A stretch of 64,000 nucleotides of DNA from Flavobacteriales bacterium (GCA_016719225.1 JADKAN010000001.1:573728-637727), one strand, 5' to 3'. Shown: positions 12,782-54,342, counted from the first letter of the stretch. Program-made: numbers and translations. The notes: generated by a model not told the origin, from the sequence alone.

Positions 12782-12826
12782 CTGTAGTTGACCAATTGTC
12801 AACGGTGCAGCTCGGTGGTCGATGTT

Positions 12827-13186: not shown

Positions 13187-13277
13187 GCTGCAAAGGTCGG
13201 CCATCCATTTCAGGATCTCGCTGAACCCGATAAGGCAACCAGGCGTATTACTAGCGGTATTCCCTATCCTGCCGACC

Positions 13278-23500: not shown

Positions 23501-23593
23501 AAGATCCAATGTGCCATCCATAACGCCATTGCAAAGGGTGGCCACGAAGGGCTGGTGCCATTGATGATCGATGAGCCGTTAGCTCAACCCTGA
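20585..23593 (+). CDS. Bifunctional glycoside hydrolase family 3 (NagZ-like beta-N-acetylhexosaminidase) / serine hydrolase (beta-lactamase-fold) fusion protein
   Basis: 1002 aa with a signal peptide. GH3 N-terminal catalytic blocks (KHFPGHGDTDQDSHKTLP, GFEGLVFTDALNMKG). A C-terminal domain carries the beta-lactamase/PBP SxxK motif (ASISKVMGTT) and a YSD-type element (YVYSDMGMY). Confidence 0.8.
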   Translation: MKRSLLILLLGTAISVSFGGGPPARSNGTMPPFLDVRTPWADSVMQTLDLDHQIAQLMMVAAYSNKNEGHAADIEKLVREQGIGGLIFFQGGPVRQAKLTNRYQAAASTPLWIGMDLEWGLSMRLDSTVQFPRQMTLGALQNVDKIEAMGGEIARQMKRLGVQVSFSPDVDVNINSANPVISDRSFGEDPEQVALRGIAYMRGLQRGGVIATAKHFPGHGDTDQDSHKTLPKVTASRARLDSVELRPFQQLIDAGVGAVMVAHLEVPALDSTPGLPSTMSRKIVTELLQRDMGFEGLVFTDALNMKGIADADKPGAIELRALQAGNDVLLFPQDPVKAIATIRKAVENGLIAKETISYKCLKVLRAKEWAGLDKLKPIELNGLTADLNRPDALALRRSLYADALTVVANKGLIPIRALDSLKIASLVIGDAKHNAFQKALGRYAPVKEFSCGKILNAAQSQQVLDSLKGFDLVITSVHQVSTRANKEFGVPQLTLDLLRRLNDQQTAINVLFANPYRLGTAIGAQRWKGVVVAYEENDDTEDLAAQMLFGAIQATGTLPVTASQFFKLGQGEETASLQRLRYGLPEEDRMQSKDLGRVDSIVLDGIKAGAYPGCQVLVAHDGMVVLNRSYGSPTYANARPVETDDIYDLASISKVMGTTLALMKLSDEGQVDVEKTLGDYLPWIVSSPYHASLKLSEILAHQSGLKPFVPFYRNLMDGNQLKAGISVSKPDNDHTLNVADGIYINAAYQDSITKWILATTLGKRGDYVYSDMGMYLLKLVIEKVAGLPMDQYLRKEFYAPLGLATMGYSPLVNFPKDRIMPTENDMVFRKQQIQGYVHDPGAAMMGGVAGHAGLFSDANDLAIVLQMLLDGGIYGGKRYLKRATVDHFTKCRFCTGVQGKGNRRALGWDRPTERGQPGPACADASSASFGHTGFTGTVIWADPRDRSIYVFLSNRVFPDAGNKKLAHMDIRTKIQCAIHNAIAKGGHEGLVPLMIDEPLAQP

Positions 23594-29185: not shown

Positions 29186-29330
29186 GCAAGGGTTTCGGTG
29201 GAAGGGCAGGGGAACTCGCGCTGGCCAAAGTAACGGGGAAGGGCCGATCCAATTGCCTTTGAGCCTGTTTTGAGCGCGCTTGAGGTTTGCAGCTTCTCGC
29301 CGCAAGCCTCAAGCTTTCAAGCCACACGTG

Positions 29331-34985: not shown

Positions 34986-36116
34986 CTAAATGCCTCTCGC
35001 GACCAAACCTGCGGCCTCACGTCCCACCCGTATCCCTACGGCCACACCGATACCGCCCAAGCCCGCCGCCAGCACGGTGCGGGACGAGCGGCGTTCCACC
35101 AGCGGTGGGCCGCCTTGTTCGCGGAAACCCATTACGCCGCTCCAGCGCTGGGCGATGCGGAATTCCTTTTCCGGCAGGATCAGCGTGCGCAGCAGCTCCT
35201 CCAGTGCGTTCTGGATCTGCTGTGTAGTGCCGTCCAGATCGGTGGTTTCCCCGGCCATGTCCAAGTGGCGGCCGCCACCCAGCAGCACCCTGCCTTGGTA
35301 GTGCCGGAAGTAGTAGTAGCCTTCATCCACGTGGAAGGTGCCTGTCAGCGTCAACCCCGGTATTTCCTCCGTTAGCAGCACTTGCCCGCGCGCGGGCAGG
35401 ATGCCACATCCGGGCACCAGGTGCCTGCTGAAACCGTTGGTGGCGAACACCACCTGCTTGGCCGTGCATACCGCGCCACCATCCAACTTCAGCGACACGC
35501 CATGCGCGTCCTCCTCCCAAGAGACCACCTTCGCGTTGAAGCGGACCTCCGAACCGGCTTCCTGCACCTTGCGGAGCAGTGCGCGCATGAGCATGCCACT
35601 GTCCACCGCACCTTCCAGCGCATTCCATGTGAGGTGCTCCGCGCTCAGGCCTAGAGCGGGGATCCGGTCGTCGGCCCGAACGAACACGTCCTTGCCAACG
35701 ATGCCGCGCAACGCGGTGTTCAGCAGGTCGAACCGTTCCGCCACCCGCGTGTACAGCGGATCATCCTTCCGGAACACCTCATATCCGCCCACGGGCTCAA
35801 AACCAATGGCTTCGTCGCCCAGTTCCTGCCGCAGTTCCAACAGCCCGCGCCAGCGCTCCTCCACGCGTTGCATGGCCACCGTCTCGCCCAACGTGTCCAG
35901 ATCGTGCAGCAGCTCGCTCGGGCTGCCGAAGCAGGCGAAGCCCGCATTCTTGACGCTCGCCCCAACCGGGTGCGGGCCGCTTTCCAACACCACCACCCGG
36001 TGGTCGGCGTGTTCCCGCAGGTAGTGCAGGGCCGTGAAGAGGCCGGTGATGCCCGCGCCCACCACCACAAGCGCGGTTTCCCCGCTGAAGGAACGATCTT
36101 CCCAAATGCTTCCCAT
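34986..36116 (-). CDS. FAD-dependent oxidoreductase (DAO/glycine-oxidase-like)
   Basis: N-terminal dinucleotide-binding motif VVVGAGITGLFTALHYL followed by VVVLE. 376 aa. Confidence 0.75.
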   Translation of the reverse strand: MGSIWEDRSFSGETALVVVGAGITGLFTALHYLREHADHRVVVLESGPHPVGASVKNAGFACFGSPSELLHDLDTLGETVAMQRVEERWRGLLELRQELGDEAIGFEPVGGYEVFRKDDPLYTRVAERFDLLNTALRGIVGKDVFVRADDRIPALGLSAEHLTWNALEGAVDSGMLMRALLRKVQEAGSEVRFNAKVVSWEEDAHGVSLKLDGGAVCTAKQVVFATNGFSRHLVPGCGILPARGQVLLTEEIPGLTLTGTFHVDEGYYYFRHYQGRVLLGGGRHLDMAGETTDLDGTTQQIQNALEELLRTLILPEKEFRIAQRWSGVMGFREQGGPPLVERRSSRTVLAAGLGGIGVAVGIRVGREAAGLVARGI

Positions 36117-36261
36117 GATGTTCCTGTTCTTGCTTGCGCCTGCTAAATTCGGCTATCGAAACCCGCGAGGTGGACGTCCGTTGAACTTAACGGGCGTTAC
36201 CACGCGCCAAAGTTGTTGTAAATTGCCGCTTATCCAGACCCGACCCCGCACCCCGCCCTGC

Positions 36262-39200
36262 ATGGCCGCAACCGCCTTTCGTCCGCTCCATTGGCTTTTC
36301 CTTGCCTTTTTCCTTTTGTTCGGACTGGCGGCGAACGCGCAGATCGACAACGTGTATGTGTACGGCACGGTAAAGGACTACAATACCTCGAAGAAGTTGG
36401 ACGGCATCACCGTTTCCGTGCTGAAGGACGGTGCCAAATTCGCGCAGGTGGTCACCAGTGCCAACGGCAAATACGAGTTCAACCTGGATTATGGGCATGA
36501 CTACAAGCTCGTGTTCGAAAAGCCGGGCATGGTGGGCAAGAACGTGAGCATCAACACCACCAGTATTCCGGAGGGGGACCGTCAAGGGGGCTTGGCGATG
36601 AACGTGGAAATGACGCTGTTCCAAGAGTTGCCGGGCATCGATTTCAAGTTGCTGCAACAACCCATCGGGAAGTCGAAGTATGATCCGGAGACGAAGAACC
36701 TGGCGTGGGATCTCCAGTACACCGAGCAGATCCGCTCGGAGATGGAGCGCTTGCTGAAGGAATACGACGACAAGAAAAAGCGCGAGGCCGGTGCGGATGA
36801 ATCCTACGCGAAGGCCATGAAGGCCGGAACCGATGCCATGACAGCGGCCGGATACGACAAGGCTGTGAAATCCTTTACCGAAGCGCTGGGCTACAAACCC
36901 GCTGATCCCGTGGCTACCGCGAAGTTGAGCGATGCACAGATCAAGCTGAACGAACTGAGCGCTGCCAGCAAGAAAGAGGCACAATACTCGGACTTGATCA
37001 AAACAGCGGACGCCTTGTTCGGCAAAAAGCAATACGAGGACGCGAAGGCGAAGTACCAGGAAGCTACGCAGGTGAAGGACCAGGAAGCCTATCCCAAACA
37101 GAAGGTGAAGGAATGTGATGCCTTCATCGACGACCTCGCCAAGAAGGCCGAAGCCGATAAGAAGGCCAAGGAACTGGACGATAAGTTCAATGCCGCAATT
37201 GCCGCCGGGGATGCGGCTTTCAAGGCTGAGAAGTACGATCAGGCCAAGACGGGCTTCACCGAAGCGCAGGCCTTGAAGCCCGCTGAGAAATACCCGCCCG
37301 AACAGCTCGCTGCCATCGCCAAGAAATTGGATGAACAGGCCAAGAAGGCGGAAGAGGACGCTAAGAACAAAGAGATGGAGGCCAAGTACCAAGCCGCCAT
37401 TACCGCCGGCGATGCCTCGTTCAAAAAAAACGACTACGATGCCGCGAAAGGCAAGTACAACGAGGCGTTGGGCCTGAAGGCAAAAGAGAAATACCCCACG
37501 GACCAGCTCGTTGAGATCGATAAGAAGCTGAAGGAACTGGCCGATAAGGCCGATGCCGATGCCAAAGCCAAGGAGCTGGAAGGGCAGTACCAAGCCGCCG
37601 TCGCAGCAGGTGATGCCGCCTTCAAGAGCGCGGATTATGATGCAGCGAAGGGTAAATACAACGAAGCCCTCGGTTTGAAGGCGAAGGAGAAATACCCCAC
37701 GGACCAGCTTGCCGCGATTGAGAAAAAGTTGAAGGACATAGCCGATAAGGCCGACGCGGATGCCAAAGCCAAAGAGCAGGACGCCCAGTACCAAGCCGCT
37801 ATAGCCGCTGCTGACGCCTCCTTCCAAACGGCCGACTACGATGCCGCGAAAGGCAAGTACAGCGAGGCGTTGGGCATGAAGCCGAAGGAGAAATATCCCA
37901 CGGACCAACTCGCCGCCATCGCGAAAAAGGTGAAGGAACTGGCGGACAAGGCCGATGCGGATGCAAAAGCCAAGGCGCTAGACGAGCAGTACCAAAAGCT
38001 GGTGGACAATGCTGAAAAGCTCTTTGCCGATGCGTCCTTCACCGAAGCCAAGGCAAAATACCAAGAGGCCCTGGGGCTGAAACCCTCCGAGGCGAAGCCG
38101 AAGGAACGCATCGTGGAGATCGATGCCAAGCTCGCCGAACTCGCCCGCCAAGCGGATGAGAAGAAGAAGCAGGACGAACTGGATGCGAAATACGCCGGCC
38201 TGATCAGCAGCGCCGATAAGTTCTTCAAGGACAAGAAGAACAGCGATGCGCTGAATAATTACAAGGATGCGCTGGGACTGAAAGCAGGTGAACAGTACCC
38301 GAAGGACCAGATCGCGGCCATTGAACAGCTGATGGACGCCAATGCCAAGGAGCAGGCGGAAAAGGACCGACTAGCACGCGAGGCCAAGGACAAGGACGAC
38401 AAGTACAATGCCCTCATCAAGCAAGCGGACATCGAATTCAAGGCAAAGAGCTACGACGGTGCGTTGAGCGGTTATGAGCAAGCATTGGACATCAAGGCGG
38501 ATGAGAAATACCCCGCTGACCAGATCACGGCGATCCAGAAACTACAGGCCGAGCTGGCTTCCAAGAGCGCGGCGGATAGCCTGAAAGCCGCGCAGGACGC
38601 CGAGGAGCGCGCGCGACTGGATGCGGAGAAGCGTAGCAAGGAACAGTCTGCCGCCGAACTGCAAGGCCGCTACGATGCCGCGATCGCCAAGGCCGATGCC
38701 GCGTTCAAAACGAAGGATTACGAACCCGCGCGCGACGGCTACAACGAAGCACTGGGCATCAAGGCCGATGAGAAGTATCCCAAGGACCAATTGGCGGCCA
38801 TTGATGCTGCACTGGCACAATTGAGCGCGGCCGACAGCTTGGCCGCTGCTACTGCGGAAAAGGCCCGTCTGGAAGCGGAGGAGCGTGCGCGCTTGGATGC
38901 GGAGAAGCGCAGCAAGGAGCAGTCCGCCGCTGAACTGCAAGGCCGCTACGATGCCGCTATCGCCAAGGCCGATGCCGCGTTCAAAACGCAGGATTACGAC
39001 CCCGCTCGCGAAGGCTACAACGAAGCGCTCCGCATCAAGGCGGACGAGAAATATCCCAAAGGCCAATTGGCCGCCATTGATGCCGCACTGGCACAACTGA
39101 GCGCGGCGGACAGCTTAGCCGCTGCTGCTGCTGAAAAAGCAAGAATGGAAGCGGAGGCGGCCCGAAGCCAGGCCGATGCCGAAGCGGAAGGTAAGCGCCT

Positions 39201-40389
39201 GGCACTTGAGAAGGCCAAACAGGAGCGGGAAGGCCAGCAAGCCATTGATGATCGCTATGCCGAGGTGATCCGGAACGCGGACGCCAGCATGGCCTCGCAG
39301 GATTATTCCGCAGCTCGGGACCTGTATTCGCAAGCACTGGACATCAAGTCCACCGAGACCTACCCACAGGTGAAGATCGAACAGATCGACAAGTTGTTGG
39401 CGGAACAGGCCCGCTTGGAAGCGGAACGTGCCAAGGCCGAACAGGCGAAGGTGAAGACCCCCCCGCCGCCGGTGGCCACGGCTTCCATGGACAACCGCAA
39501 GGAGCTGGAAGCAGAGGATTTCATGCGCGAAGCACGCGAACGCGAGGACGCCGAGAAGTATGGCAAGATCAAGCGGTTGAAGGTGGCTGTGCAGGACCAA
39601 GCGGTCACAGGTCAGGAAGAGGCGAACAAGCGTCAGGAAGAAGACCTGAAAAGGAACCAGTCCGTAAGGGACGGATCCGCTTCACTTTACGAGGGAAGCG
39701 AGGAAATGCGCAAACGGAATGCGGAGGAACTGGAAGCCCTCCGACAAGCGTTGGCGGATCGTCAGGAATCGCTACGCGCGCAAGGGGTCGCCCAAAGCCA
39801 GCAGGCATTGATGGTTGCCAATGCACAAATTGAGGCCCATGCGGATATGGTAACCGCACACCAAAAAGGAAGTAGCACGGCCGGAACCATCGAACAGCGC
39901 ACCGCCGATGCCCAGAGCCACATGGAGGCAGTTGCTTCCGCCGCGCAGGAACGCACTGCCGCTGCCTATGCACAGGTAGAGGTTGCGCAGCAGCAAGCAG
40001 TCGAAATGCAAGAGAAGGGATCCGGACTGGCTAGCAAACAGCAACAGGCCTCGGAACAGTTCAAGGAACAGGAGAGCATGCACCAACAGGAGTTGGCGAA
40101 TGCCGGTAAGGACCGGAGTGCCGGGGAAAAGGAGCGCCTCAGCGGGATCAACGTCAATGCCCAGCGCTCCACCGCGGATTACGGTCGCAATAAGCTCGCC
40201 GAGGAATATCCACAAGGTGTTACCGAGGAAAGCTACACGGAAGGCAATAAGGTGATCATCCGTCGGGTGGTCGTGGAGGGCAACAAGGCCAATGCCTACA
40301 GCAAGGTGATCGCCAAGTGGGGGACGTTCTATTTCAAGGACGGGCAACCCATTTCCGAGCAGAACTGGTCGGTGAATACGGAACAGTAA
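36262..40389 (+). CDS. Large secreted repeat protein: N-terminal carboxypeptidase-regulatory-like beta-sandwich, about 15 TPR-like 'KYP-x-DQLAAI' repeats, and a Gln-rich coiled-coil C-terminal region
   Basis: Signal peptide MAATAFRPLHWLFLAFFLLFGLAANAQ. YGTVKDYNTSKKLDGITVSVLKDGAKFAQVVTSANGKYEFNL matches a CarbopepD_reg-like domain. A ~69-aa unit recurs (xKYxAAIxAGDAAFKxxDYDAAKGKYNEALGLKAKEKYPTDQLAAIxKKLKELADKADADAKAKE). The C-terminal ~300 aa is Q/A/E-rich. 1375 aa in total. Confidence 0.8.
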   Translation: MAATAFRPLHWLFLAFFLLFGLAANAQIDNVYVYGTVKDYNTSKKLDGITVSVLKDGAKFAQVVTSANGKYEFNLDYGHDYKLVFEKPGMVGKNVSINTTSIPEGDRQGGLAMNVEMTLFQELPGIDFKLLQQPIGKSKYDPETKNLAWDLQYTEQIRSEMERLLKEYDDKKKREAGADESYAKAMKAGTDAMTAAGYDKAVKSFTEALGYKPADPVATAKLSDAQIKLNELSAASKKEAQYSDLIKTADALFGKKQYEDAKAKYQEATQVKDQEAYPKQKVKECDAFIDDLAKKAEADKKAKELDDKFNAAIAAGDAAFKAEKYDQAKTGFTEAQALKPAEKYPPEQLAAIAKKLDEQAKKAEEDAKNKEMEAKYQAAITAGDASFKKNDYDAAKGKYNEALGLKAKEKYPTDQLVEIDKKLKELADKADADAKAKELEGQYQAAVAAGDAAFKSADYDAAKGKYNEALGLKAKEKYPTDQLAAIEKKLKDIADKADADAKAKEQDAQYQAAIAAADASFQTADYDAAKGKYSEALGMKPKEKYPTDQLAAIAKKVKELADKADADAKAKALDEQYQKLVDNAEKLFADASFTEAKAKYQEALGLKPSEAKPKERIVEIDAKLAELARQADEKKKQDELDAKYAGLISSADKFFKDKKNSDALNNYKDALGLKAGEQYPKDQIAAIEQLMDANAKEQAEKDRLAREAKDKDDKYNALIKQADIEFKAKSYDGALSGYEQALDIKADEKYPADQITAIQKLQAELASKSAADSLKAAQDAEERARLDAEKRSKEQSAAELQGRYDAAIAKADAAFKTKDYEPARDGYNEALGIKADEKYPKDQLAAIDAALAQLSAADSLAAATAEKARLEAEERARLDAEKRSKEQSAAELQGRYDAAIAKADAAFKTQDYDPAREGYNEALRIKADEKYPKGQLAAIDAALAQLSAADSLAAAAAEKARMEAEAARSQADAEAEGKRLALEKAKQEREGQQAIDDRYAEVIRNADASMASQDYSAARDLYSQALDIKSTETYPQVKIEQIDKLLAEQARLEAERAKAEQAKVKTPPPPVATASMDNRKELEAEDFMREAREREDAEKYGKIKRLKVAVQDQAVTGQEEANKRQEEDLKRNQSVRDGSASLYEGSEEMRKRNAEELEALRQALADRQESLRAQGVAQSQQALMVANAQIEAHADMVTAHQKGSSTAGTIEQRTADAQSHMEAVASAAQERTAAAYAQVEVAQQQAVEMQEKGSGLASKQQQASEQFKEQESMHQQELANAGKDRSAGEKERLSGINVNAQRSTADYGRNKLAEEYPQGVTEESYTEGNKVIIRRVVVEGNKANAYSKVIAKWGTFYFKDGQPISEQNWSVNTEQ
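37378..37998 (+). repeat. Three tandem ~207-bp (69-codon) coding repeats inside the repeat-protein gene
   Basis: The nucleotide-level repeat gccaagtaccaagccgcc...aaggagaaataccccacggaccagct...gccgataaggccgatgc(c/g)gatgccaaagccaa recurs three times with high identity. Confidence 0.7.
38593..39160 (+). repeat. Near-identical ~285-bp direct tandem duplication inside the repeat-protein gene
   Basis: gaggagcgcgcgcgactggatgcggagaagcgtagcaaggaacagtctgccgccgaactgcaaggccgctacgatgccgc... recurs at about 38878 with only scattered, mostly synonymous substitutions. The 95-aa units ERARLDAEKRSKEQSAAELQGRYDAAIAKADAAFKT(K/Q)DY(E/D)PAR(D/E)GYNEAL(G/R)IKADEKYPK(D/G)QLAAIDAALAQLSAADSLAAA are almost identical. 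Confidence 0.8.
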
Positions 40390-40696: not shown

Positions 40697-42175
40697 TCAC
40701 TTCGCCTTTCTCTTTTCCAGTGACTTGATCAGCTCGACCATCTGGTCCACGTCCAACTGCTTGCCTACGATCTTGTGATCCTTGTCCATCAGGAAGAACT
40801 TCGGCGTGCTGTAAACATCCCACGTGTCCGCATAGTTCATGCTTTCGATGGTGGTGTATTTGGGGATGTAATTGTAGGAAGCCTTCTTCGCACCTTCATA
40901 AACGTGCCACGTCAGGCCCACATTGATCCAGTCCAGGTCGTTGGCCTTGATGAAGGTTTTCCAGTCGTTGTACAACACGCTGTCCGTGGCCTTGGCGATG
41001 GCGAAAACGGCCACGTCCAATGGCTTCAACTTGGCTTTCCAGTCCTCGTGCAGCACCGGCAATACCTTTTTGCAGTGGCCGCAATGCGGATCCCAGAACA
41101 CCAACAACACGTATTTGTTGGGCAGACTGTAGTACCCCTGCCAGTTCGCTTCCGTGGTGTCCGTTAAGATGATGTCCTTGCCTGTGGCACCGATCACCAG
41201 GGGGGCCATCTTTTTGGCGCGCTCGCACAACTTGTCCAGCTTATCCTTTTCCATCCAAGTCGCTCTTCCCTTTCCCTCGGTGGGGCAGTAGTAGGTCTGC
41301 GCCATATGCACGAACACCGCATCCATGCCCATGATGTCGCTGGTCTCGTACTTGTACGTGATGCCGTTCACGGCGAATTTGAACAGTTCGCCATTGTCGT
41401 CCATGCGCCGGATCAGGTCGTCGGCGGCCATGTTGATGGTGTCCGGGATCTGCGGCACCACCTTGCTGATGTATTCATCGAACTTGTTCTGGAATACTGG
41501 CGTACGCAGGTTGCGCGGGTCCTTCAGGTCGGTGTTGTCCCAGAAGTGCTGGCGGAAAGCGTAATAGCTCGCCGTGCTGTCCAAGGTTCCATCAGCCTTA
41601 AGCACCTGCGTGTTGTCAGGCTCGATGCTCATCTTCACGATGCTGGCCATGTAGGTGCCCGGATGATCCTTCACCAACTGTTTCTGGTAGTCTTTCACTT
41701 CCTTATCCAAGGTAGCGAGCTGCTTCATGTAAGGACCCTTCGCGATGGGGTCCTCCAATCCGGCCATGGCCTTCTTCACGCTGTCCGCCGTTTGGCGCAG
41801 CGTAGCTAACTTCTTGATGTACCCCTGGAAGATCTGGTTCTCCTCGGACTTCACCACTTTCAAATGTTCATTCAGTGCGGTCGTGTCACTGGCCATTTCC
41901 ACCACGGGCTCATTCACGATGAACTCGAAGTATTTCGGGCCGGGTATCACCACGGCATACACTCCGCTTTTATAGCCAGAGACTCGGTTGAACACGGAAA
42001 CACCTTTCGCGTTCGCCACGGTGGTGTCCGTGTAATAGAGCTTGTTGCCGAAGTAATTCGCCAAGAAGATCGTGTCGCCTGCGGTGCCGTCAACAGTGAA
42101 CTGCAGCCGGCGTTTGTCCTGTGCGTGCAAGGAGGACAAGGCTAAGCTGACAAGCAGAAGTAAAGTGGTTCGCAT
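40697..42175 (-). CDS. TlpA-family thiol:disulfide oxidoreductase with N-terminal DUF4369-like domain
   Basis: Signal peptide MRTTLLLLVSLALSSLHAQ. C-terminal thioredoxin fold with a CGHC active site (LLVFWDPHCGHCKKVLPVL). 492 aa. Confidence 0.75.
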   Translation of the reverse strand: MRTTLLLLVSLALSSLHAQDKRRLQFTVDGTAGDTIFLANYFGNKLYYTDTTVANAKGVSVFNRVSGYKSGVYAVVIPGPKYFEFIVNEPVVEMASDTTALNEHLKVVKSEENQIFQGYIKKLATLRQTADSVKKAMAGLEDPIAKGPYMKQLATLDKEVKDYQKQLVKDHPGTYMASIVKMSIEPDNTQVLKADGTLDSTASYYAFRQHFWDNTDLKDPRNLRTPVFQNKFDEYISKVVPQIPDTINMAADDLIRRMDDNGELFKFAVNGITYKYETSDIMGMDAVFVHMAQTYYCPTEGKGRATWMEKDKLDKLCERAKKMAPLVIGATGKDIILTDTTEANWQGYYSLPNKYVLLVFWDPHCGHCKKVLPVLHEDWKAKLKPLDVAVFAIAKATDSVLYNDWKTFIKANDLDWINVGLTWHVYEGAKKASYNYIPKYTTIESMNYADTWDVYSTPKFFLMDKDHKIVGKQLDVDQMVELIKSLEKRKAK

Positions 42176-42425: not shown

Positions 42426-44024
42426 TCACGCGTGTTGCAAGGTCTTGAACTCGTTGGTGAAATGGAACTCGATCGCCGGGTTGTTGCGTCGCTCCAAATC
42501 CAACATGTAGGCCGAAGGAGCCATGAATACCGGGTTTTCGTCCTTGTCCTGTACCACCTGCATGGACTTTACCCGGATGAATTCCTGCAAAGCCGCGGGA
42601 TCGTTGCTGGTAAGCCAACACGCCTTGTAGGCTTGGATGGATTGGAACGCGCAATCCGCCCCGTACTCGTGCTCCAAGCGATAGCGGATCACATCGAACT
42701 GCAGTTCGCCCACGCAACCCACGATCTTCTTGTTGCCGGGTTGCTGCGTGAAGAGCTGCGCCACTCCTTCCTCGGTCAATTGCCGGATCCCTTTTTCGAG
42801 CTGTTTGCTGCGCATCGGGTCCTTGTTCACCAACTCGCGGAAAAGTTCCGGGCTAAAGGACGGGATCCCGCGGAAGTTGAGGTTGGCACCCGAGGTGAGC
42901 GTGTCTCCGATCTTGAAATTGCCCGTATCGAACAATCCGATAACGTCCCCGGGCCAGGATTCCTCCACCAACGTCTTTTGCGCAGCCATGAAGGCGGTGG
43001 GATTGGCGAAGCGCAGCTTTTTCCCGCTACGCACATGGTGGTAGAACGTGTTGCGCTTAAAACTGCCGGAACACACGCGCAGGAACGCCACCCGGTCCCG
43101 GTGGTTGGGGTCAAGGTTGGCGTGTATCTTGAATACGAAGCCGGTGAATGCAGGGTCTTCGGGCCGCACGGTGCCTTGGTCGGTCTCGCGCGGCCCGGGC
43201 GGCGGGGCGATGCGCACAAAGGTGTCAAGCACTTCGCGCACGCCGAAGTTGTTGAACGCACTGCCGAAGAAAACCGGTGCCAATTGCCCCGCGCGGTAAG
43301 CCGCCACATCCAGTGGGTCGTACACGCCGTTCACCAGGTCCACGTCCTGACGCAGTGTAGCGGCTGCTTCGGCACCGAGGATCTTATCCACCTGTGGATC
43401 GTTGAGGTCGCTGACCTGAACGGCTTCCGCCTCGCGCTTGGTCTTAATGGCCTCGAAGAGACGCAGGTCACCATCATACAGATCGTAAACGCCTTTGAAA
43501 GTGGCGCCAACGCCTATCGGCCAGCTGAGCGGCCGCACCTTGATGGAGAGCTTCTCCTCCAATTCGTCCAATAGGTCGAAGGGGTCGCGGCCTTCCAGGT
43601 CGAGCTTGTTGATGAACACGATCACCGGCGTGTTCCGCATGCGGCACACCTCCATGAGCCGCTCGGTCTGCGCTTCCACGCCCTTGGTGGAATCGATCAC
43701 CAATACCACGCTGTCCACTGCGGTGAGCGTGCGGTAAGTGTCTTCGGCAAAGTCACGGTGACCGGGCGTATCTAGCAGGTTCATCAGCGTACCCGCATAA
43801 TCGAAGGTCATCACCGAAGTGCTCACGGAGATACCGCGTTGCCGCTCGATCTCCATGAAGTCACTGGTGGCGCCTTTGCGGATCTTGTTGCTCTTAACAG
43901 CCCCTGCGGTCTGGATGGCACCACCGTACAGTAGGAATTTCTCCGTTAGCGTGGTCTTACCCGCGTCAGGGTGGCTGATGATGGCGAATGTGCGCCGCTT
44001 GGCTATCTCCTCGATCGGTCCCAT
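42426..44024 (-). CDS. prfC: Peptide chain release factor 3 (GTPase)
   Basis: [35 protein letters not shown] (G1), DTPGHRDF (G3), NKLD (G4). Overall RF3 blocks. Confidence 0.9.
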
Positions 44025-44115: not shown

Positions 44116-45741
44116 ATGAACCGTCTTTACATCGCTCTTGCATTGGCATTGCCTTTCGGGGTTTTCGCGCAGACCAATTCCCCACAGATCGCCTTGCACA
44201 CTTGGGCCACCGGGCTGACAAGGCCCGTCTATGTCACCAATGCCGGGGATGATCGCCTGTTCCTGGTGCAGCGCCAAGGGGTGATCAAGATCATTACCGA
44301 CAGTATGCAAGTGGCACCAACGCCATTCCTGAATATCACGACAGAGGTTACCAGCAGCGGAAGCGTTGGGGATGAGCAAGGCCTGCTCAGCATGGTCTTC
44401 GATCCGGGATATGCCACCAACGGTTTCTTCTACGTTTACTACATCAACGGCAGCGGCAGTGGTACCAGTCGCATTTCGCGTTTTCATGTAAGTGATGACC
44501 CGAACGTGGCCGATGCTGCAAGTGAAGTGGTATTGTACACCCGCGTTCAGCCTTATTCAAACCACAACGGGGGTTGCCTTCAGTTCGGACCGGACGGCTA
44601 CCTGTATTGCGGTTTCGGCGATGGGGGATCGTTCAACGACCCGCAAGGCAATGGTCAGAACCTGTCCACGGCCTTGGCTTCCATGATCCGCTTGGATGTT
44701 TCCGCGCACGACGCTACTTATGCGATACCGTCCACAAACCCGTTCGTGGGTGCACAGGACACGCTTCCGGAGATCTGGGCCAGCGGGCTGCGTAACCCAT
44801 GGAGGTATTCCTTCGACCGGCTAACAGGCGACCTGTGGATCGGTGACGTTGGCCAAGGGGCGTGGGAGGAGTTGGATTTTTGGCCTGCGGGCGACAACAG
44901 CGGCCCGAACTTCGGATGGCGTTGTCGTGAGGGATTGGTCGCTACACCGGGCGTTTCACAGACCGGCTGCGGCGCTGCTGCGGATTACGTTCCTCCTATC
45001 GCCGTGTTCAACCACACGAACCAGAACTGGTGTTCGATCATCGGCGGTTACGTGTACCGCGGCCCCAGCTTTCCGCACCTCTATGGCAAGTACATCTTCA
45101 CCGATTATTGCGCCGGTGATTTTCTCTCCAGTACCGCCGACGGCCAACTCGACACGCTGTTGATGACCACCACGGCCGGTTATTCCGCGTTTGGCGAGGA
45201 TGTGAACGGGGAGTTGTACGTGGTGGACGTGAGCGGAGGAACCGTGAAAAAGATCGTGGACGCTTGTCCCATGGACGATCCACAGATCACCTTCGATGGT
45301 ACCACGCTTTCCAGTACGGACGCGACCACATGGCAGTGGTACTTGGACGGGGCCATCATTACTGGTGCCACGGCACAGACCTTCGCTCCTCAGGCCAATG
45401 GTTCCTATACGGTGAAAGCCGGTTTCGGGGCGCCATGCGATCTATACTCCGAACCCTTGGTCGTGCTCGTTACAGGTATCCACAGTTCTGGTGATAACGC
45501 TCCGGCGATCTACCCCCAACCAGCTTTGGACCGCATGCATCTTCGTGCAGCAACAGCAAGCGCCATGGCATCGCAGATCGAGCTGTTCGATGCCATGGGT
45601 CGCATGGTGCGCACCTATCAATGGCCTGTTGGGACCTTGGAGGTGACCATCGACGTGGCTGGCTTGGCACCGGGCAATTATGTGGTGCGAGGCTCCAATG
45701 CTGCGGGAGCATGGCGCCAAGCGGTGGAAGTGGGGCGTTGA
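44116..45741 (+). CDS. PQQ-dependent (soluble glucose/sorbosone dehydrogenase-type) sugar dehydrogenase beta-propeller with T9SS C-terminal sorting domain, paralog 1
   Basis: Signal peptide [23 protein letters not shown]-family blocks ([58 protein letters not shown]). C-terminal ~80 aa Por-secretion CTD (…MHLRAATAS…[23 protein letters not shown]). Confidence 0.8.
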
Positions 45742-45928
45742 ACATTGGTTCTGGAGCCGGACATGTTGAGTGCAACTACCAAAGTGTAGCGCGTGCCCGT
45801 CATTCTATGGTTCCGGTATCCGAAGATCCGGATCGGAGCCATGGATATGTGCACGACAGCGGAATGAGGGCTGCAGTAGGCTGTTCCCTACCTTCGTGCC
45901 GCTCAGCCGATCCACTCGACCTTCTTCA

Positions 45929-47542
45929 ATGAAACGCATCCTGGCCGTTACCTCTTTGGCTTTTCCGCTCTTGCTCACCGCGCAGGAAAACCAAGCGAGG
46001 ATCGCACTTCATGATTGGGCAAGCGGGTTGAACCGTCCGGTTTATGCCACACATGCGGGTGATAGCAGGCTCTTCGTGTTGGAACAACCCGGTGTGATCA
46101 AGATCATTACCGACAGCAATACCGTACTGTCCACGCCTTTCTTGGACATAACCGATCAGGTGAACAGTAATGGTAACGAGCAAGGCCTGCTTGGTTTGGC
46201 CTTCGATCCCGGATACGCCACCAACGGTTACTTCTATGTGTATTTCATCCGTGGCTTCAGCTTTGGGTCCAGTAGGCTCTCTCGATTCCAAGTCAGCGCC
46301 GACCCGAACGTGGCGGACCCGTCCACTCAGGTAAACCTTTATGACCGGTTGCAGATCAACAGCAACCACAATGGTGGCTGCCTGCAATTCGGTCCGGATG
46401 GTTACCTCTATTGCGGCTTCGGGGACGGCGGAAGTGCGAATGACCCACCGAACAGCGGTCAAGACCTTTCCAGCGTGCTCGGCTCCATGATGCGCATCGA
46501 TGTATCTGAGCACAATTCCACCTATTTGATCCCGCCCACGAATCCTTTCGTGAACACCACGGACACCCTCCCGGAGATCTGGGCAAGCGGGTTGCGCAAC
46601 CCGTGGCGCTACAGTTTCGATCGCCTCACAGGAGACCTTTGGATCGGTGATGTAGGACAAAACCTTTCAGAAGAGCTGGATTTTTGGCCTGCTGGGGACA
46701 ACAGTGGTCCGAACTTCGGGTGGCGCTGCCGTGAAGGTCTATTGACCAACGCCAATGTGGACCAGACAAATTGTGGGACCGCGGAAGATTACGTTCCGCC
46801 CATCGCTGTTTTCAACCATGCGGACGAAGCATGGTGTGCCATTATAGGCGGATACGTTTATCGTGGACCGGCATTTCCGCATCTGTACGGTAAATACATC
46901 TTCACCGATTATTGCAACGGGGACTTTCTTACCAGCACGCCGGAAGGGCAGTTGGACACGTTGATGCAAAGCATCTATCCGGGCAATTCGGCCTTTGCAC
47001 AAGATACCGCCGGCGAGCTTTATGTGGTCAATGTGGAGTTCGGAACGGTGAAGAAGATCGTGGATGCATGTCCTATGGACCCTCCGGAGATCTCGTTCGA
47101 TGGTTTGACGCTTACGTCCACCGGTGCAGATACATGGCAATGGTACTTGGATGGCACAGCTATTACAGGAGCCACCGGGCAGACCTTTCTTCCGACGGCT
47201 GAAGGTAGTTACACCGTAAAGGCCAGCCATGGGCCGCCCTGCGACCTGTATTCTGCTCCTCTGATCGTTCTGTTTACATCCGTGGTGTCCGGGGTTTTAG
47301 AAGCACCGGCCGTGTTCCCGAGGCCGGCCAGTGATCAGGTTACCCTTCGTGGTTCCAATGCTGATGGGGCGGTACGGGTTGAAATGATCGATCCAATGGG
47401 CCGGATTGTGCGCACCGTGCAGTGGCCTAAGGGCACATCTGAGCTCACCATGGATGTGGCCGGCATTGCACCGGGCCGTTACTTGGTGCGAGGTACCGGT
47501 CCACAGGGAACTTGGCGGCTAGCCGTGGAAGTGTTCCATTGA
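45929..47542 (+). CDS. PQQ-dependent sugar dehydrogenase with T9SS C-terminal sorting domain, paralog 2
   Basis: Signal peptide MKRILAVTSLAFPLLLTAQ. About 70% identical to the upstream paralog through the propeller (the same [24 protein letters not shown] and [12 protein letters not shown] blocks) and the CTD. Confidence 0.8.
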   Translation: MKRILAVTSLAFPLLLTAQENQARIALHDWASGLNRPVYATHAGDSRLFVLEQPGVIKIITDSNTVLSTPFLDITDQVNSNGNEQGLLGLAFDPGYATNGYFYVYFIRGFSFGSSRLSRFQVSADPNVADPSTQVNLYDRLQINSNHNGGCLQFGPDGYLYCGFGDGGSANDPPNSGQDLSSVLGSMMRIDVSEHNSTYLIPPTNPFVNTTDTLPEIWASGLRNPWRYSFDRLTGDLWIGDVGQNLSEELDFWPAGDNSGPNFGWRCREGLLTNANVDQTNCGTAEDYVPPIAVFNHADEAWCAIIGGYVYRGPAFPHLYGKYIFTDYCNGDFLTSTPEGQLDTLMQSIYPGNSAFAQDTAGELYVVNVEFGTVKKIVDACPMDPPEISFDGLTLTSTGADTWQWYLDGTAITGATGQTFLPTAEGSYTVKASHGPPCDLYSAPLIVLFTSVVSGVLEAPAVFPRPASDQVTLRGSNADGAVRVEMIDPMGRIVRTVQWPKGTSELTMDVAGIAPGRYLVRGTGPQGTWRLAVEVFH

Positions 47543-49218: not shown

Positions 49219-49872
49219 ATGCGGAACAAAGCCGTTCTCTTTTTCCTGGCAACGGCCATGGTGATCGCACTACCAGCGCTTTGGGCCATCGCAGCCACCT
49301 CCCACTTGGCCTTGCATCAAATTGTGAACCAGTGGCACACGGCTTGGGCGGACCAAGCCATGCCGTGGATCACCGAAGCAGCTAACGGATGGGTCCCTGT
49401 CGTATTGACGATCGCTCTCCTTTGGCATTCATGGCGTGCGTTCCTGATGATGGGGCTCAGCACGGCCTTAGGCTCCTTGGCCGTGCAGTCACTGAAGCAT
49501 TTCCTTTTCCCCGGCATGGACAGGCCAGCGGCTTTCTTGGCGGAGATGCCCGGATTGCATCTGGTTCCCGGCGTGGACCTCCATCACAGTTTCAGTTTCC
49601 CGAGCGGGCATTCTACAGCCGCCTTTGGGATGTGTCTCGCCTTGGCCGTTATCTGGGGCAAGCGCGCGCCTGCCGTAGGCTTGGCATTACTCGCGTGTAT
49701 CTTGTCCTACTCCAGGGTATACCTCTCGCAGCATTTCACCGAGGATGCGGTGGCCGGTGCAGCCTTGGGCACATTCATCGCTTGGCTGGTCTACCGTCGG
49801 TTGTACCACGGCCCACTTTCACTCCGCCCCGGTCTGGACCGCTCGCCCGTTCGGCGCTATTCCGGTGAATAG
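49219..49872 (+). CDS. PAP2-family (type 2 phosphatidic acid phosphatase) membrane phosphatase
   Basis: PAP2 motifs KHFLFPGMDRP (KxxxxxxRP), PSGHS and SRVYLSQHFTED (SRxxxxxHxxxD). Several TM helices. Confidence 0.75.
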   Translation: MRNKAVLFFLATAMVIALPALWAIAATSHLALHQIVNQWHTAWADQAMPWITEAANGWVPVVLTIALLWHSWRAFLMMGLSTALGSLAVQSLKHFLFPGMDRPAAFLAEMPGLHLVPGVDLHHSFSFPSGHSTAAFGMCLALAVIWGKRAPAVGLALLACILSYSRVYLSQHFTEDAVAGAALGTFIAWLVYRRLYHGPLSLRPGLDRSPVRRYSGE

Positions 49873-50987
49873 GTGATCCGGTAGATCAGGTCCGCGGAAT
49901 CATCGCTCAGCAACAAGGAGCCGTCCGGTAGTTCCTGTAACGCCACCGGCCTTCCCCACGCCGTATTGCCCTTCAGCCAGCCTTCCGCGAAGATGTCCGT
50001 AGTGGCGCTACCATCAGGCTGTGGCCAAGCGACCATTACCCGATAGCCCAAGGGAGTGGTACGGTTCCAACTGCCATGCTGGGCGATGAAAATGGCGTTA
50101 CGGTATTTTTCCGGGAACATGGATCCACGATAGAACTTCATGCCCAGCGCGGCCACGTGCGGACCCATCAAAGCTGCTGGTGGCACATAATCCGAGCAGT
50201 TTTTGCCTTTGCCAAATTCCGGGTCCGGAATATCCCCTTGATGGCAGAACGGAAAGCCGAAGTGGCTGCCTGGTCTTACCAAATGGTCCAGTTCATCATT
50301 GGGTACATCATCACCCATCATGTCACGCCCGTTGTCCGTGAACCACAGGCTACCATCCCTAGGGTCCCAATCGAACCCTACACTGTTGCGGACCCCCTTT
50401 GCAATGATCTCCAGTCCGGTGCCATCCGCGTTCATGCGGGTAATGGTCGCGAAAATGCTGTCCTCGCTGAGGCAGTTATTGCATGGTGCTCCTACGGGCA
50501 CGTAAAGTTTTCCGTCCGGACCGAAGGCGATGTATTTCCAGCCATGGTGCTCCTTATCCGGGAAGCAGGTGCATACCGTGACCGGTGCTGGCGGATCTGC
50601 GAGATGGCTGGCAATATCCGGTAGTTTCACAATACGGTCCACCGAACTCACATAGAGGTCACCGTCATGTATGGCTACACCGGCCGGCATATTCAGCTTG
50701 GTGGCGATGGTGAACAAGGTGTCGGCGTGTCCGTCGTTATCCAGGTCGCGAAGCGCATATACGTTGCCTGCATCCCGCGAACCAACGTATACGGTTCCAT
50801 CGGCGCCCAAACTCATGCCGCGGGCATTGGGGACGTTTTTCGCGTAGACAGCAATGTGGAAGCCAGGTGGCAGCGTGATGTCATGTAAGCGGGGATCACC
50901 GGCGAAAAGGGTGGGCTGGCAAACGCCACCCAATCCCAACACCGCTGCCCAGGGAGTAACAGAAAGCAAGCGCTGCGCAAGCTTCAT
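49857..50987 (-). CDS. Sorbosone/glucose dehydrogenase-family (PQQ-dependent-type) beta-propeller oxidoreductase
   Basis: Signal peptide MKLAQRLLSVTPWAAVLG. Blocks GKLYVPVGAPCN, WFTDNGRDMMGDDVPNDELDHLVRPGSHFGFPFCH and IFIAQHGSWNR are typical of L-sorbosone DH / Asd-family propellers. Confidence 0.7.
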   Translation of the reverse strand: MKLAQRLLSVTPWAAVLGLGGVCQPTLFAGDPRLHDITLPPGFHIAVYAKNVPNARGMSLGADGTVYVGSRDAGNVYALRDLDNDGHADTLFTIATKLNMPAGVAIHDGDLYVSSVDRIVKLPDIASHLADPPAPVTVCTCFPDKEHHGWKYIAFGPDGKLYVPVGAPCNNCLSEDSIFATITRMNADGTGLEIIAKGVRNSVGFDWDPRDGSLWFTDNGRDMMGDDVPNDELDHLVRPGSHFGFPFCHQGDIPDPEFGKGKNCSDYVPPAALMGPHVAALGMKFYRGSMFPEKYRNAIFIAQHGSWNRTTPLGYRVMVAWPQPDGSATTDIFAEGWLKGNTAWGRPVALQELPDGSLLLSDDSADLIYRITYSPE

Positions 50988-51427
50988 TCCTCCTTCGGAG
51001 TGGGAACGATCAGTACAGGTATCGCGTCCGCGTGAATTACCTCCTCACTAACGCTTCCAATAAAAGCCTTGGCCAACCCATGCCGTCCATGGTTGCCCAT
51101 TACGATAAGGTCAGCGTTCAAACGTTTTGCTTCTTTCAGGATCACTTCCACCGTAGGGCCCATTACCAAGATGGCTTGCGCAACAATGTCCTGGGCCTGG
51201 GTTTCAGCCGCGCACCGCTGCAGCCACGTGTGCTCCTCCCTTAGTTCATCGGCACGCACATCCCTGATATACTGTGGGCCAGCCTCATAGCCAACGAGAT
51301 CGGGCTGGGGGGCGGCGACATGGAGCAGCCAGAGTTTGGCACCTGTGGCTTTGGCCAAGCGGCATGCCATGGCCGAAACCTTATCCGTGCCGGGCTTCAA
51401 GTCCAAGGGTACCAGTATGTTCTTCAT
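50984..51427 (-). CDS. Universal stress protein (UspA family)
   Basis: MKNILVPLDLKPGTDKVSAMACRLAKATGAKLWLLHV ... ADLIVMGNHGRHGLAKAFIGSVSEEVIHADAIPVLIV is the canonical Usp fold, with the ATP-binding G-x2-G-x9-G-S motif. Its stop overlaps the start of the downstream sorbosone-DH gene. Confidence 0.85.
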   Translation of the reverse strand: MKNILVPLDLKPGTDKVSAMACRLAKATGAKLWLLHVAAPQPDLVGYEAGPQYIRDVRADELREEHTWLQRCAAETQAQDIVAQAILVMGPTVEVILKEAKRLNADLIVMGNHGRHGLAKAFIGSVSEEVIHADAIPVLIVPTPKEE

Positions 51428-52283: not shown

Positions 52284-53336
52284 TCATTGGACCACAACGC
52301 GCACGCTGCCACCCTCGAACCCCATCATTCCTATATCTGCCGACATAATTTGGTTATTCGTCATTAAAGTCTGTATTTCGGTCGAAAAGCGGGGATCGCA
52401 TGATACCAGCAGTCCGCCACTGGTCTGGGGGTCGCTTAATAGCATCATTCGTTCCAATGATGCCGCTCCTTCGATCTTGGAGGCATAGCTTTTCCAGTTG
52501 CGCAAAGCGCCATCCGCATAGCATCCGAGTGCCAAGTAGTGCAGGCTCTCAGGAATTAAAGGGATATCAGTATAGCTCAATGTCGCTTTTGTGCCACTTG
52601 CTTGGCACATTTCCAACAAATGGCCCAGCAGTCCGAATCCGGTTACGTCTGTGAGCGCATGTACGCCCGGTTGTTCGCCCAGCAATGCCCCGATGTGGTT
52701 AAGCCGTATCATTTGGTCGCGGGCGATATGGATATGCTCCGGCTGAAGCTGCCCACGTTTCATTGCCGTGGCCAATACCCCGACACCCAATGGCTTGGTA
52801 AGCAATAGCCGATCACCGGGCCTTGCAGAGCTATTCCGCTTAATGTTCTTCACCGCTACTTCACCAGTGACCGCTAAACCGAAAAAGGGTTCGGGGGCAT
52901 CGATACTGTGGCCACCGGCGAGCGGGATGCCCGCATCCTTGCAAGCTTGGCGACCGCCTGCAACCACTTGTGCAGCCAATTCAGCGCCCAATTTCTCCAA
53001 GGGCCAACCAAGCACCGCTACCGCCATCAGCGGGCGGCCGCCCATGGCATAAACGTCGCTCAGTGCATTAACTGCGGCGATGCGCCCAAAGTCGAACGCA
53101 TCATCCACGATAGGGGAAAAGAAGTCCGTTGTGCTGATGATAGCGCGCCCATCACCCAGGTCATAAACGGCTGCATCATCCCGGGTGTGATAGCCCACTA
53201 GGAGCCGGGCCTCAGGGATATCCATCGTCGAACCACTGAGGATCTTGTCCAATTCCGCCGGGGCGATCTTGCAACCACAACCAGCACCATGGCTGTACTG
53301 CGTGAGTCTGAGATCGGGCTGCGTCAATTCATTCAT
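52284..53336 (-). CDS. selD: Selenide, water dikinase (selenophosphate synthetase), Cys-type
   Basis: LTQYSHGAGCGCKIAP Gly-rich N-terminal motif, with Cys at the position that is Sec/Cys in SelD. AIR-synthase-related fold blocks (DAAV, GGHSID). Confidence 0.9.
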   Translation of the reverse strand: MNELTQPDLRLTQYSHGAGCGCKIAPAELDKILSGSTMDIPEARLLVGYHTRDDAAVYDLGDGRAIISTTDFFSPIVDDAFDFGRIAAVNALSDVYAMGGRPLMAVAVLGWPLEKLGAELAAQVVAGGRQACKDAGIPLAGGHSIDAPEPFFGLAVTGEVAVKNIKRNSSARPGDRLLLTKPLGVGVLATAMKRGQLQPEHIHIARDQMIRLNHIGALLGEQPGVHALTDVTGFGLLGHLLEMCQASGTKATLSYTDIPLIPESLHYLALGCYADGALRNWKSYASKIEGAASLERMMLLSDPQTSGGLLVSCDPRFSTEIQTLMTNNQIMSADIGMMGFEGGSVRVVVQ

Positions 53337-54342
53337 GTTGAGCAAGTTGTTCTGCAATATTTGAAATGGAGGTTTGATCTGCATTGATGGTGGTGATCAA
53401 TGCCGGATCGCGCTTGCCCAGGCCGTGTGCATAGGTTTTGTCGTAGTAACCCAGCACGGTGAGTGCTACCCCCTGAAGGTCCCCTTCTTCGAGCTGCTCC
53501 AATGCTTGTTTTGCGTGTTGGGGGCCAACGCGTTTGGCGATCCGTTGAATAGCTTGGGCCAATTCTTCCCTGGGTTGTTCACCATAGTCCAGCGCCAATC
53601 GGCCCGCCCGCTGCGAAGCTGGCATGTCCACGTAGTACACCCGCGCAGAACGCATTTGAGCGAACAATCCATCTGGGATCTTAACCCGACCGATGGTGCT
53701 GCTTTCATCCTCCAGCCAAATGGGTCGGTCAGGGTCCAGTGCTGATAATTCCGCCCACAGTTCATTTTCGAAATGTTCCGTACCGGGCTGTTCTTGTTGG
53801 CCAATGCCGCCAAAGGAGGAGCCTTTGTGGTTGGCCAATCCTTCAAGGTCCACCACTTGCTTTCCGCGTGCATGCAATAACGCAAGCAACGCCGTTTTGC
53901 CTGAGCCCGTGGCCCCACCCAATACTATCAGGGAACGGTTTTTTCCGAAGGATCCCAATACATGGGCGCGAAAGGCCTTGTAACCCTTCCGCAGCACGAC
54001 CACTTCCGTAAAACCTGCTTTATCCAATAACCAAGCTACGCTTGCGCTTCGTTCACCTCCCCGCCAGCAATGGACACCTATTCTTTTTCCCGGTGCGATC
54101 AAGGAGGCCTTCTCCACCAGATCGGCCATTTTCGGGCCTACGATCCGCAAGCCTTCCAATAGCGCCTCATCGCGACCTTTCTTTTTGTACAACGTGCCCA
54201 CAACAGCACGTTCGTCATTGCTGAATAGTGGCAGATTGTGCGCTCCGGGTATATGACCTTGTTTGAATTCACCGGGTGAACGAACATCGATCACCGGTAG
54301 TCCGGCGGCCAGAAAAGCTTCCACCGGTTCGTTCCGCAGCAT
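53329..54342 (-). CDS. selU: tRNA 2-selenouridine synthase (rhodanese + P-loop)
   Basis: N-terminal rhodanese domain with the catalytic Cys (IGVHCWRGGERS). P-loop GGATGSGKT. Overlaps the selD start by 8 nt (operon). Confidence 0.85.
   Translation of the reverse strand: MLRNEPVEAFLAAGLPVIDVRSPGEFKQGHIPGAHNLPLFSNDERAVVGTLYKKKGRDEALLEGLRIVGPKMADLVEKASLIAPGKRIGVHCWRGGERSASVAWLLDKAGFTEVVVLRKGYKAFRAHVLGSFGKNRSLIVLGGATGSGKTALLALLHARGKQVVDLEGLANHKGSSFGGIGQQEQPGTEHFENELWAELSALDPDRPIWLEDESSTIGRVKIPDGLFAQMRSARVYYVDMPASQRAGRLALDYGEQPREELAQAIQRIAKRVGPQHAKQALEQLEEGDLQGVALTVLGYYDKTYAHGLGKRDPALITTINADQTSISNIAEQLAQHE

Follow-up and report, generated by a model that had tools for sequence, protein, structure and literature searches.

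We examined a stretch of 64,000 nucleotides from Flavobacteriales bacterium (GCA_016719225.1 JADKAN010000001.1:573728-637727), hereafter the window, in which two adjacent genes, A and B, encode exported propeller proteins of the glucose/sorbosone dehydrogenase (GSDH) family. Their tandem paralogy and shared architecture are confirmed and lie far beyond chance. They appear to be tandem paralogous cargo of the type IX secretion system (T9SS) of Bacteroidota, and we regard them as lineage-specific tandem copies of a common, ordinary Flavobacteriales cargo protein. By sequence and by predicted fold, their propeller belongs to the HHIP-type branch of the GSDH superfamily. It carries a conserved pocket that is probably an active site, with chemistry like that of soluble glucose dehydrogenase (sGDH) at the quinone end of the cofactor pyrroloquinoline quinone (PQQ). 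Thousands of GSDH-family proteins have been named “PQQ-dependent sugar dehydrogenase” automatically, many of those in Flavobacteriales with a T9SS tail. For A and B this label is unproven; PQQ use is plausible from the residues kept. Caution is called for, as the label derives from a Pfam family in which the non-enzymatic HHIP is found too, and the subfamily of A and B is without about half of the canonical PQQ site. What the analysis adds to the automatic name is an HHIP-type propeller with an incomplete PQQ site, a spacer domain, and a distinct subfamily for a third gene, C.

A sequence-only reading of the window had described two adjacent genes, about 70% identical to each other, that share identical blocks of 24 and 11 letters. 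Open reading frames (ORFs) are indeed found there, both on the plus strand: gene A (44116-45741; 541 amino acids), for a secreted GSDH-family (HHIP-like) propeller that ends in a T9SS C-terminal domain (CTD) of type A, and its paralogue gene B (45929-47542; 537 amino acids), with an identical four-part architecture. Starts were taken as the first ATG preceding a signal-peptide-like sequence. The two products are 67.3% identical over 539 columns (full-length BLASTP, E = 0), and both blocks are present in A and in B. Because these blocks coincide with motifs that are invariant across the family, gene conversion was ruled out as their origin. The genes are separated by 187 nucleotides. A scan found no terminator between them, and the accompanying promoter scan used the sigma-70 consensus, which is little informative for Bacteroidota. 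The NCBI assembly GCA_049290555.1 has a contig on which the very same two proteins are annotated.

The same reading had given each protein a signal peptide, a GSDH propeller and a T9SS CTD. Pfam, NCBIfam and our own reading of the sequence agree on these three parts; the description overlooked a fourth, a beta-sandwich of approximately 75 amino acids between propeller and CTD. In A, the signal peptide (residues 1-18, ending in VFA before Q; 44116-44169) was read from the sequence. It is followed by a six-bladed beta-propeller (residues ~25-382; 44188-45261), placed by an AlphaFold2 (AF2) model, Foldseek and hhalign; by the spacer (residues 384-459; 45265-45492), placed by AF2 strands and a family hidden Markov model (HMM); and by the type A sorting domain (residues 463-541; 45502-45738), placed by Pfam, NCBIfam and a family HMM. 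In B, the propeller (residues ~25-379; 46001-47065) was located by alignment to A, the spacer beta-sandwich (residues 381-453; 47069-47287) by the family HMM, and the CTD (residues 460-537; 47306-47539) by Pfam and the family HMM. All of these features lie on the plus strand. The Pfam profile GSDH (PF07995; cut-off 25) matches A with 113.7 bits (E = 1.5e-32) and B with 120.8 bits (E = 1e-34), each match spanning only positions 2-275 of the 332 in the profile. Beyond GSDH and Por_Secre_tail, the Pfam scan of A and B returned no domain, including no flanking domains of the eukaryotic HHIP type, and neither protein has a redox domain, cytochrome included. The strands of the approximately 75-residue spacer of A are visible in the AF2 model. 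It contains the invariant Cys384 and Cys441, its family HMM scores 116 bits in A and 101.7 bits in B, and it is weakly PKD-like (Pfam PKD_3 on A, 18.3 bits, below the cut-off).

To which known structures are these propellers closest? For A, the AF2 model computed from an alignment of 42 sequences reaches a mean predicted local distance difference test score (pLDDT) of 88.9 and a predicted template modelling score (pTM) of 0.77; in it the propeller (~25-382), which starts about 6 residues past the signal peptide, is followed by a small beta domain and then by the sandwich of the CTD. When A is compared with the PDB by Foldseek, sixteen HHIP chains rank first (E = 4e-26 to 3e-23; 27-29% identity), sGDH and the E. 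coli protein Asd second (E approximately 1e-16 to 1e-17; 16-22% identity; target-normalised TM-score approximately 0.8 for Asd) and AA12 enzymes third (E approximately 1e-10), with a Foldseek probability of 1.00 to HHIP, sGDH, Asd and AA12. A sequence search with A gives E = 2.2e-35 for HHIP versus 6e-11 to 2e-9 for Asd-type proteins. HHIP, the human Hedgehog-interacting protein (PDB 2WFX, 3HO5, 7PGM), resembles A and B in its six-bladed GSDH fold, in a conserved His within xHxGG, in the P-x-R after the RN position, in the YRG of blade 5 and in an FGED in blade 6 that replaces Arg-x-Arg. It differs in having H-D where A and B have an invariant R-N, and no alignable counterpart was found in it for the blade-4 residues 242-306 of A (DVGQ..EE, GWRCxEG). 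The bacterial signal peptide, the PKD-like spacer and the T9SS CTD belong to A and B; in HHIP, an N-terminal cysteine-rich region and EGF repeats flank the propeller, and the protein sequesters Hedgehog ligands.

The second group, sGDH (Acinetobacter, 1C9U) and Asd/YliI (E. coli, 2G8S), has the fold of A and B (hhalign probability 99.8 for the Asd alignment) at 17-22% identity. These enzymes share with A and B the catalytic His, the Arg-Asn pair, a Gly-containing segment at the position of the metal loop, followed by (D/E)E, and N(F/Y)GW. They carry an Arg-x-Arg and a Lys/Arg that are absent from A and B and, unlike A and B, they are periplasmic, without CTD and spacer domain. The third group, AA12 (CcPDH, 6JT5/6JWF; TrAA12) together with the bacterial “PQQ-6beta” proteins (bioRxiv 10.64898/2026.07.10.737718), comprises secreted six-bladed quinoproteins active outside the cell. 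The HxxWN and the C-terminal Arg of AA12 are missing from A and B, which match AA12 structures weakly (E ~1e-10), and electrons leave the fungal AA12 enzymes through a cytochrome domain, of which A and B have none.

How much of the PQQ site is kept? The sequences of YliI (from E. coli MG1655) and of 7CDY, 2ISM and 3A9G (from search alignments) were reconstructed and aligned with A, B and C, profiles were compared with each other by hhalign, and family conservation was counted over 118 sequences that are 50-94% identical. The sGDH numbering was carried to YliI and from there to A by motif reading, the sGDH sequence itself being absent from the alignments. At the quinone end, H150 of A (codon 44563-44565, plus strand) corresponds to the catalytic base H147 of YliI (sGDH His144), and R226/N227 (codons 44791-44796, plus strand) to R214/N215 of YliI (sGDH Arg228/Asn229), which polarise the quinone carbonyls of PQQ at O5/O4; all three residues are present in 118 of the 118 sequences. 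The roles of His144, Arg228 and Asn229 in sGDH have been described (PMC6881810). The Ca2+ loop of YliI, E232-H-G-P235, has as its counterpart D244-V-G246-Q247 followed by E251-E252 in A, with D244 kept in 117 of 118 sequences and V245, G246, Q247, E251 and E252 in all of them; the ligands in sGDH are the backbone carbonyls of Gly247/Pro248, which sequence cannot show. E87, Q88 and W268 are likewise invariant among the 118 homologues.

Elsewhere in the site the family departs from YliI. Q217 of YliI is W229 in A (W in 86 sequences, F in 26, Y in 6). K314 (sGDH Lys377), which binds the C7 carboxylate, corresponds to C332, a Cys in 115 of 118 sequences that co-occurs with Cys306. R341/R343 of blade 6 (sGDH Arg406/Arg408) correspond to a gap and to S357, with Arg or Lys in 0 of 118. 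We take these two arginines to be binders of the PQQ carboxylates, a role that the papers cited here do not state. Residues 355-362 of the family read G-[YF]-[SA]-[AG]-[FI]-[GA]-[EQ]-D, and not one of the 118 members has a basic residue in this segment. Arg36 of A was considered as a stand-in for Arg273 of CcPDH and ruled out, the column being E, R, Q or K in the family. The sequence-only reading had called the proteins PQQ-type and had named loss of the PQQ-binding residues as the finding that would count against this. Its call survives in part: H150, R226 and N227 are invariant, while the Arg-x-Arg and the Lys/Arg are absent.

The retention of His150 and Arg226-Asn227 makes extracellular oxidation of an aldose or a similar hydroxyl substrate, with scavenged PQQ or a related o-quinone, the most likely function of A and B. 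His150 would serve as the sGDH-type catalytic base, acting as a general base while hydride is transferred to C5, and Arg226-Asn227 would be the pair that polarises the quinone carbonyls of PQQ. PQQ use, substrate and electron acceptor are putative, and we put PQQ-dependent oxidation by A and B at an even chance. Extracellular sugar oxidation is what we infer for the pair; a search for a redox partner, a cytochrome domain or a linked gene brought up none. Forty-five ORFs of the window were scanned with Pfam and the neighbourhoods of three homologues were inspected, and in neither set does a cytochrome, conserved redox or cofactor gene lie near A and B or their homologues.

Several observations weigh against PQQ as the cofactor. 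The counterparts of YliI R341/R343 and K314 are non-basic in every one of the 118 members, and blade 6 of A and B carries the HHIP-type FGED instead of Arg-x-Arg. Lys377 and Arg408 have been named as PQQ-binding residues of sGDH (PMC6881789). Arg621 of CcPDH, the blade-6 arginine, is conserved in sGDH and Asd (PMC6881789), and its absence from A and B is therefore real evidence against canonical PQQ binding. Since the residues aligned to Arg-x-Arg and to the Lys are absent, cofactor binding in A and B must differ from that in sGDH and Asd. The profile of the sGDH subfamily, TIGR03606, gives A and B only 29.8 and 44.6 bits versus a cut-off of 434.55. Finally, neither a cytochrome or redox domain nor a conserved partner gene was found, and no electron acceptor beyond the outer membrane is evident. 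On the other side, A and B keep invariant the R-N pair, where the non-enzymatic HHIP has H-D, as well as DVGQ..EE and GWRC, for which no counterpart aligned in HHIP. Moreover, CcPDH is without several of the bacterial PQQ-binding residues and is still PQQ-dependent (PMC4133262; PMC6881789). We also count in favour of PQQ the near-complete AA12 PQQ signature of gene C (see below), which suggests that the organism has access to the cofactor.

The sequence-only reading had noted that no PQQ biosynthesis genes are visible in the window, and none occurs among the 45 ORFs scanned. This absence by itself says little. In E. coli, the PQQ with which Gcd oxidises glucose is external and is taken up in a TonB-dependent manner (bioRxiv 2022.06.07.495086), which by analogy offers a precedent for supply by scavenging. 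No TonB-dependent receptor gene adjoins A and B; the sole one among the ORFs scanned lies at 26669-29305, 15 kb off. If PQQ dependence is true, A and B would represent a third mode of PQQ binding among six-bladed propellers, and a quinoprotein working beyond the outer membrane without an obvious electron outlet. If it is refuted, a large block of database annotations needs correcting.

A second explanation, which we consider possible though somewhat unlikely, is that A and B are surface enzymes of the HHIP branch that do not use PQQ at all. The His/Arg/Asn/Glu pocket would then carry out another reaction on a sugar-like substrate, possibly metal-dependent and cofactor-free, and the database name would be over-annotated from the Pfam family. 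The loss of all three basic residues of sGDH and Asd (Arg-x-Arg and Lys) across the family agrees with this, as does the nature of the nearest solved relative, HHIP, a non-enzymatic ligand-binding protein, and the absence of a redox partner at the loci examined. Our literature search found nothing on T9SS-sorted GSDH enzymes and nothing on PQQ in HHIP-like proteins, which fits as well; a paper on PQQ in T. cruzi was set aside as it concerns an unrelated nine-bladed protein. However, the invariant His and Arg-Asn match exactly the residues that meet the PQQ quinone in sGDH and AA12, and they have drifted in HHIP; moreover, PQQ-binding sets are known to differ between subfamilies.

It is tempting to hypothesize that proteins of the A/B type form a large bacterial “HHIP-like” clade of secreted propellers, without the canonical clamps for the PQQ carboxylates and with the invariant His/Arg/Asn pocket kept, recognisable by the hallmarks RNPWR, DVGQ..EE, GWRCxEG and FGED. 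Such a clade would be an uncharacterised class of surface enzymes if its PQQ pose is new, or if its cofactor is another one or none. We offer this tentatively and give it a rather low probability. If it holds, these proteins would be a tractable bacterial model for the biochemistry of eukaryotic HHIP-like proteins.

It is improbable, in our judgement, that A and B are non-catalytic surface binders (lectins or adhesins) using the propeller face as an HHIP-like platform for ligands. HHIP is the top match by both sequence and structure, T9SS adhesins typically show this order of a propeller, an Ig/PKD-like spacer and a CTD, and P0065, a fused double propeller among the homologues, has Asn for the catalytic His in one of its propellers. 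Against these points stand 97 columns that are at least 97% conserved, including the polar pocket cluster E87, Q88, H150, R226, N227, D244, Q247, E251 and E252; such conservation across sequences of 50-94% identity is seen more typically in enzymes than in binding proteins. HHIP itself, moreover, is without the R-N, the DVGQ..EE and the GWRC.

The double propellers deserve a short description. P0065 and P0067 (844-850 amino acids), both homologues of A, are single polypeptides that contain two tandem HHIP-like propellers and a Pro/Thr-rich tail but lack a CTD. The catalytic His is replaced by Asn in the first propeller of P0065 (HDNNNGG) and kept in the second (YTNHNGG). We had considered the two proteins as redox fusions that might hint at function, and this was ruled out, both being double propellers.

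Export by the T9SS is well supported at the level of the cargo, on the strength of the conserved CTD motifs, the signal peptide and the Cys pairs. The N-terminus of A and B combines a basic n-region with a hydrophobic core. All 42 aligned sequences have Ala18-Gln19, a context that fits cleavage by signal peptidase I before Gln. Cleavage of this kind is the Bacteroidetes “Q-rule.” Por_Secre_tail (PF18962; cut-off 27) scores 32.1 bits in A and 28.0 bits in B. NCBIfam TIGR04183, the type A sorting domain (cut-off 23), passes in A with 27.6 bits and falls just short in B with 21.6 bits; neither CTD matches a type B sorting domain. The sequence-only reading had asked whether the CTD is of type A or B, and TIGR04183 answers type A, with gene A above the cut-off. 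Within the CTD, residues P467, P469, D492 and G495 are invariant in the family alignment, and G520 and Y522 nearly so. Three Cys pairs co-occur, 270/285 and 384/441 in all 118 sequences and 306/332 in 115 of them, which fits disulfides of an exported protein. From the domain content, we suppose that a Sec signal peptide would be cleaved before the invariant Gln; the protein would fold in the periplasm into the six-bladed propeller, the small PKD-like beta-sandwich and the type A CTD; and the CTD would direct passage across the outer membrane, after which A and B would be anchored at the surface or released.

The marginal shortfall of the B CTD at TIGR04183 counts against export, and Pfam detects no T9SS core machinery gene among the 45 ORFs scanned in the window; nevertheless, the idea that the CTD is a generic beta-sandwich and the proteins are periplasmic like E. 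coli YliI is very improbable, given that A passes both CTD cut-offs and B the Pfam one, that the family keeps the motif residues of the CTD without variation, and that in this Flavobacteriales lineage the loci of relatives hold many further CTD cargo genes near the GSDH gene, plus a GBD_T9SS_assoc protein.

An additional co-occurring Cys pair, 154/165 (Cys154, 44575-44577; Cys165, 44608-44610), is found in A, in B and in about 44 of the 118 relatives. It flanks the strand after the catalytic His and may well form a disulfide beside the active site that is specific to one clade. Elsewhere in the window, an ORF of 164 amino acids on the minus strand (11900-12394) has a weak T9SS sorting domain (family CTD HMM, 25.6 bits; Por_Secre_tail, 19.7 bits, below the cut-off) and is possibly a third T9SS cargo gene.

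The family of A and B is large and routinely annotated. A protein search returned 7,887 relatives at E <= 1e-5 among 8,000 candidates, and GSDH together with Por_Secre_tail is present in 105 of the 120 matches listed, most of them of about 540 amino acids and 50-94% identical to A. Where relatives are named, the names include “glucose/arabinose dehydrogenase,” and “PQQ-dependent sugar dehydrogenase” is routine in metagenome-assembled genomes (MAGs) of Flavobacteriales. A propeller with 44% identity also occurs in L014 (10001-11062), whose contig bears the label Candidatus Saccharimonadales. T9SS cargo would not be expected in that phylum; contamination during binning or horizontal transfer may account for the match.

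On one side the locus is conserved. Gene A is divergent from prfC (42426-44024, minus strand), which encodes release factor 3 (RF3; GTP_EFTU and RF3_C domains), and of the 13 related genome loci retrieved, 11 have a GSDH-CTD gene that adjoins a divergent prfC. By tblastn, RF3 lies upstream of the GSDH gene in L003-L013, and the arrangement recurs in L016-L019. A DUF5106/thioredoxin gene and a giant TPR protein follow further along in the relatives examined. Conservation is confined to this prfC and DUF5106-thioredoxin side, the downstream side being variable and free of redox or cofactor genes. In the window, the corresponding genes are 40697-42175 (minus strand), encoding a DUF5106/thioredoxin-like protein, and beside it 36034-40389 (plus strand), whose product of ~1,360-1,450 amino acids has an N-terminal CarboxypepD_reg domain and then many ~70-residue Ala/Lys/Asp-rich TPR-like repeats. 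The TPR-like and DUF5106 genes are syntenic with prfC and the GSDH-CTD gene even in the distant L018 and L019.

Most relatives carry a single copy of the GSDH-CTD gene. The A+B pair recurs only in L007, where identity is 82% for the orthologue of A and 70% for that of B, which is frameshifted, and a separate pair, whose members are about 50% identical to each other, is found in L011. Therefore the A/B duplication is local and lineage-specific, common to one sister species, and duplication has arisen separately elsewhere; B has also changed faster than A. The A/B duplication would have taken place in situ beside prfC, before the split from that sister species. In L007, which is a long-read MAG, a single frameshift around residue 137 divides the B orthologue (11840-13465), which points either to an error of assembly or to a pseudogene. 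Of the 97 columns that are conserved in at least 97% of the other 116 sequences, all are retained in A and 94 in B, so that constraint acts on both copies. Among its changes, B carries W250S in the active-site loop DVGQ..EE, and the divergence of B, this substitution included, suggests a shifted specificity.

Here we turn to the third family member, gene C (49857-50987, minus strand; 376 amino acids). The sequence-only reading had presented it as a more divergent relative of A and B, co-transcribed with a universal stress protein gene. Membership in the GSDH family stands, and the start of C overlaps by 4 nucleotides the stop of the Usp gene (50984-51427, minus strand; Pfam Usp, E = 2.4e-31). 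C is not simply more divergent, though; it is a six-bladed propeller of the AA12/DUF7133 type, a separate subfamily that is about 27% identical to A and B over approximately 200 residues. It matches GSDH with 53.9 bits (cut-off 25) and DUF7133 with 48.7 bits; Pfam TrAA12 is weak (20.9 bits versus a cut-off of 30.9), and the TIGR02604 N-terminal domain scores 87 bits, below its cut-off.

The PQQ-binding set of CcPDH comprises R273, H363, R430, N431, H539, H560, W563, N564 and R621. Aligned to CcPDH (6JT5), C keeps PH (His539), HGSWN (His560/Trp563/Asn564), GVRN (Arg430/Asn431) and GRP (Arg621), and it has HHGW at the catalytic-His position. Altogether, by alignment, it matches eight of the nine residues, R273 being without a mapped counterpart. 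At the metal site, C has NGRD where CcPDH has the Ca-site NSLD. NGRD...D is a proposed signature of putatively lanthanide-binding bacterial six-bladed PQQ proteins (bioRxiv 10.64898/2026.07.10.737718). We note that in C the NGRD is followed by acidic residues (TDNGRDMMGDDVPNDELD), alongside PH, HGSWN, RN and GRP. The matches to the CcPDH residues and the NGRD signature together make C a better quinoprotein candidate than A and B in this window. Its partner gene differs from the one reported: for the PQQ-6beta proteins of Bacteroidetes the partner is cytochrome c551 (bioRxiv 10.64898/2026.07.10.737718), whereas C is paired with the Usp gene. The Usp-C pairing recurs in L007.

The window otherwise consists of housekeeping genes (clpB, gyrA, ppdK, parAB, ribBA, selD/selU). 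An AIRS-family, SelD-like ORF (52284-53384, minus strand) lies beside a rhodanese/AAA_SelU ORF resembling tRNA 2-selenouridine synthase (53329-54342, minus strand). As listed, the two overlap; with the L001 gene calls they share 8 nucleotides. The pair suggests that the organism uses selenium. At 20585-23593 (plus strand), a single ORF of 1,002 amino acids fuses a GH3 N-terminal domain to a beta-lactamase-family domain.

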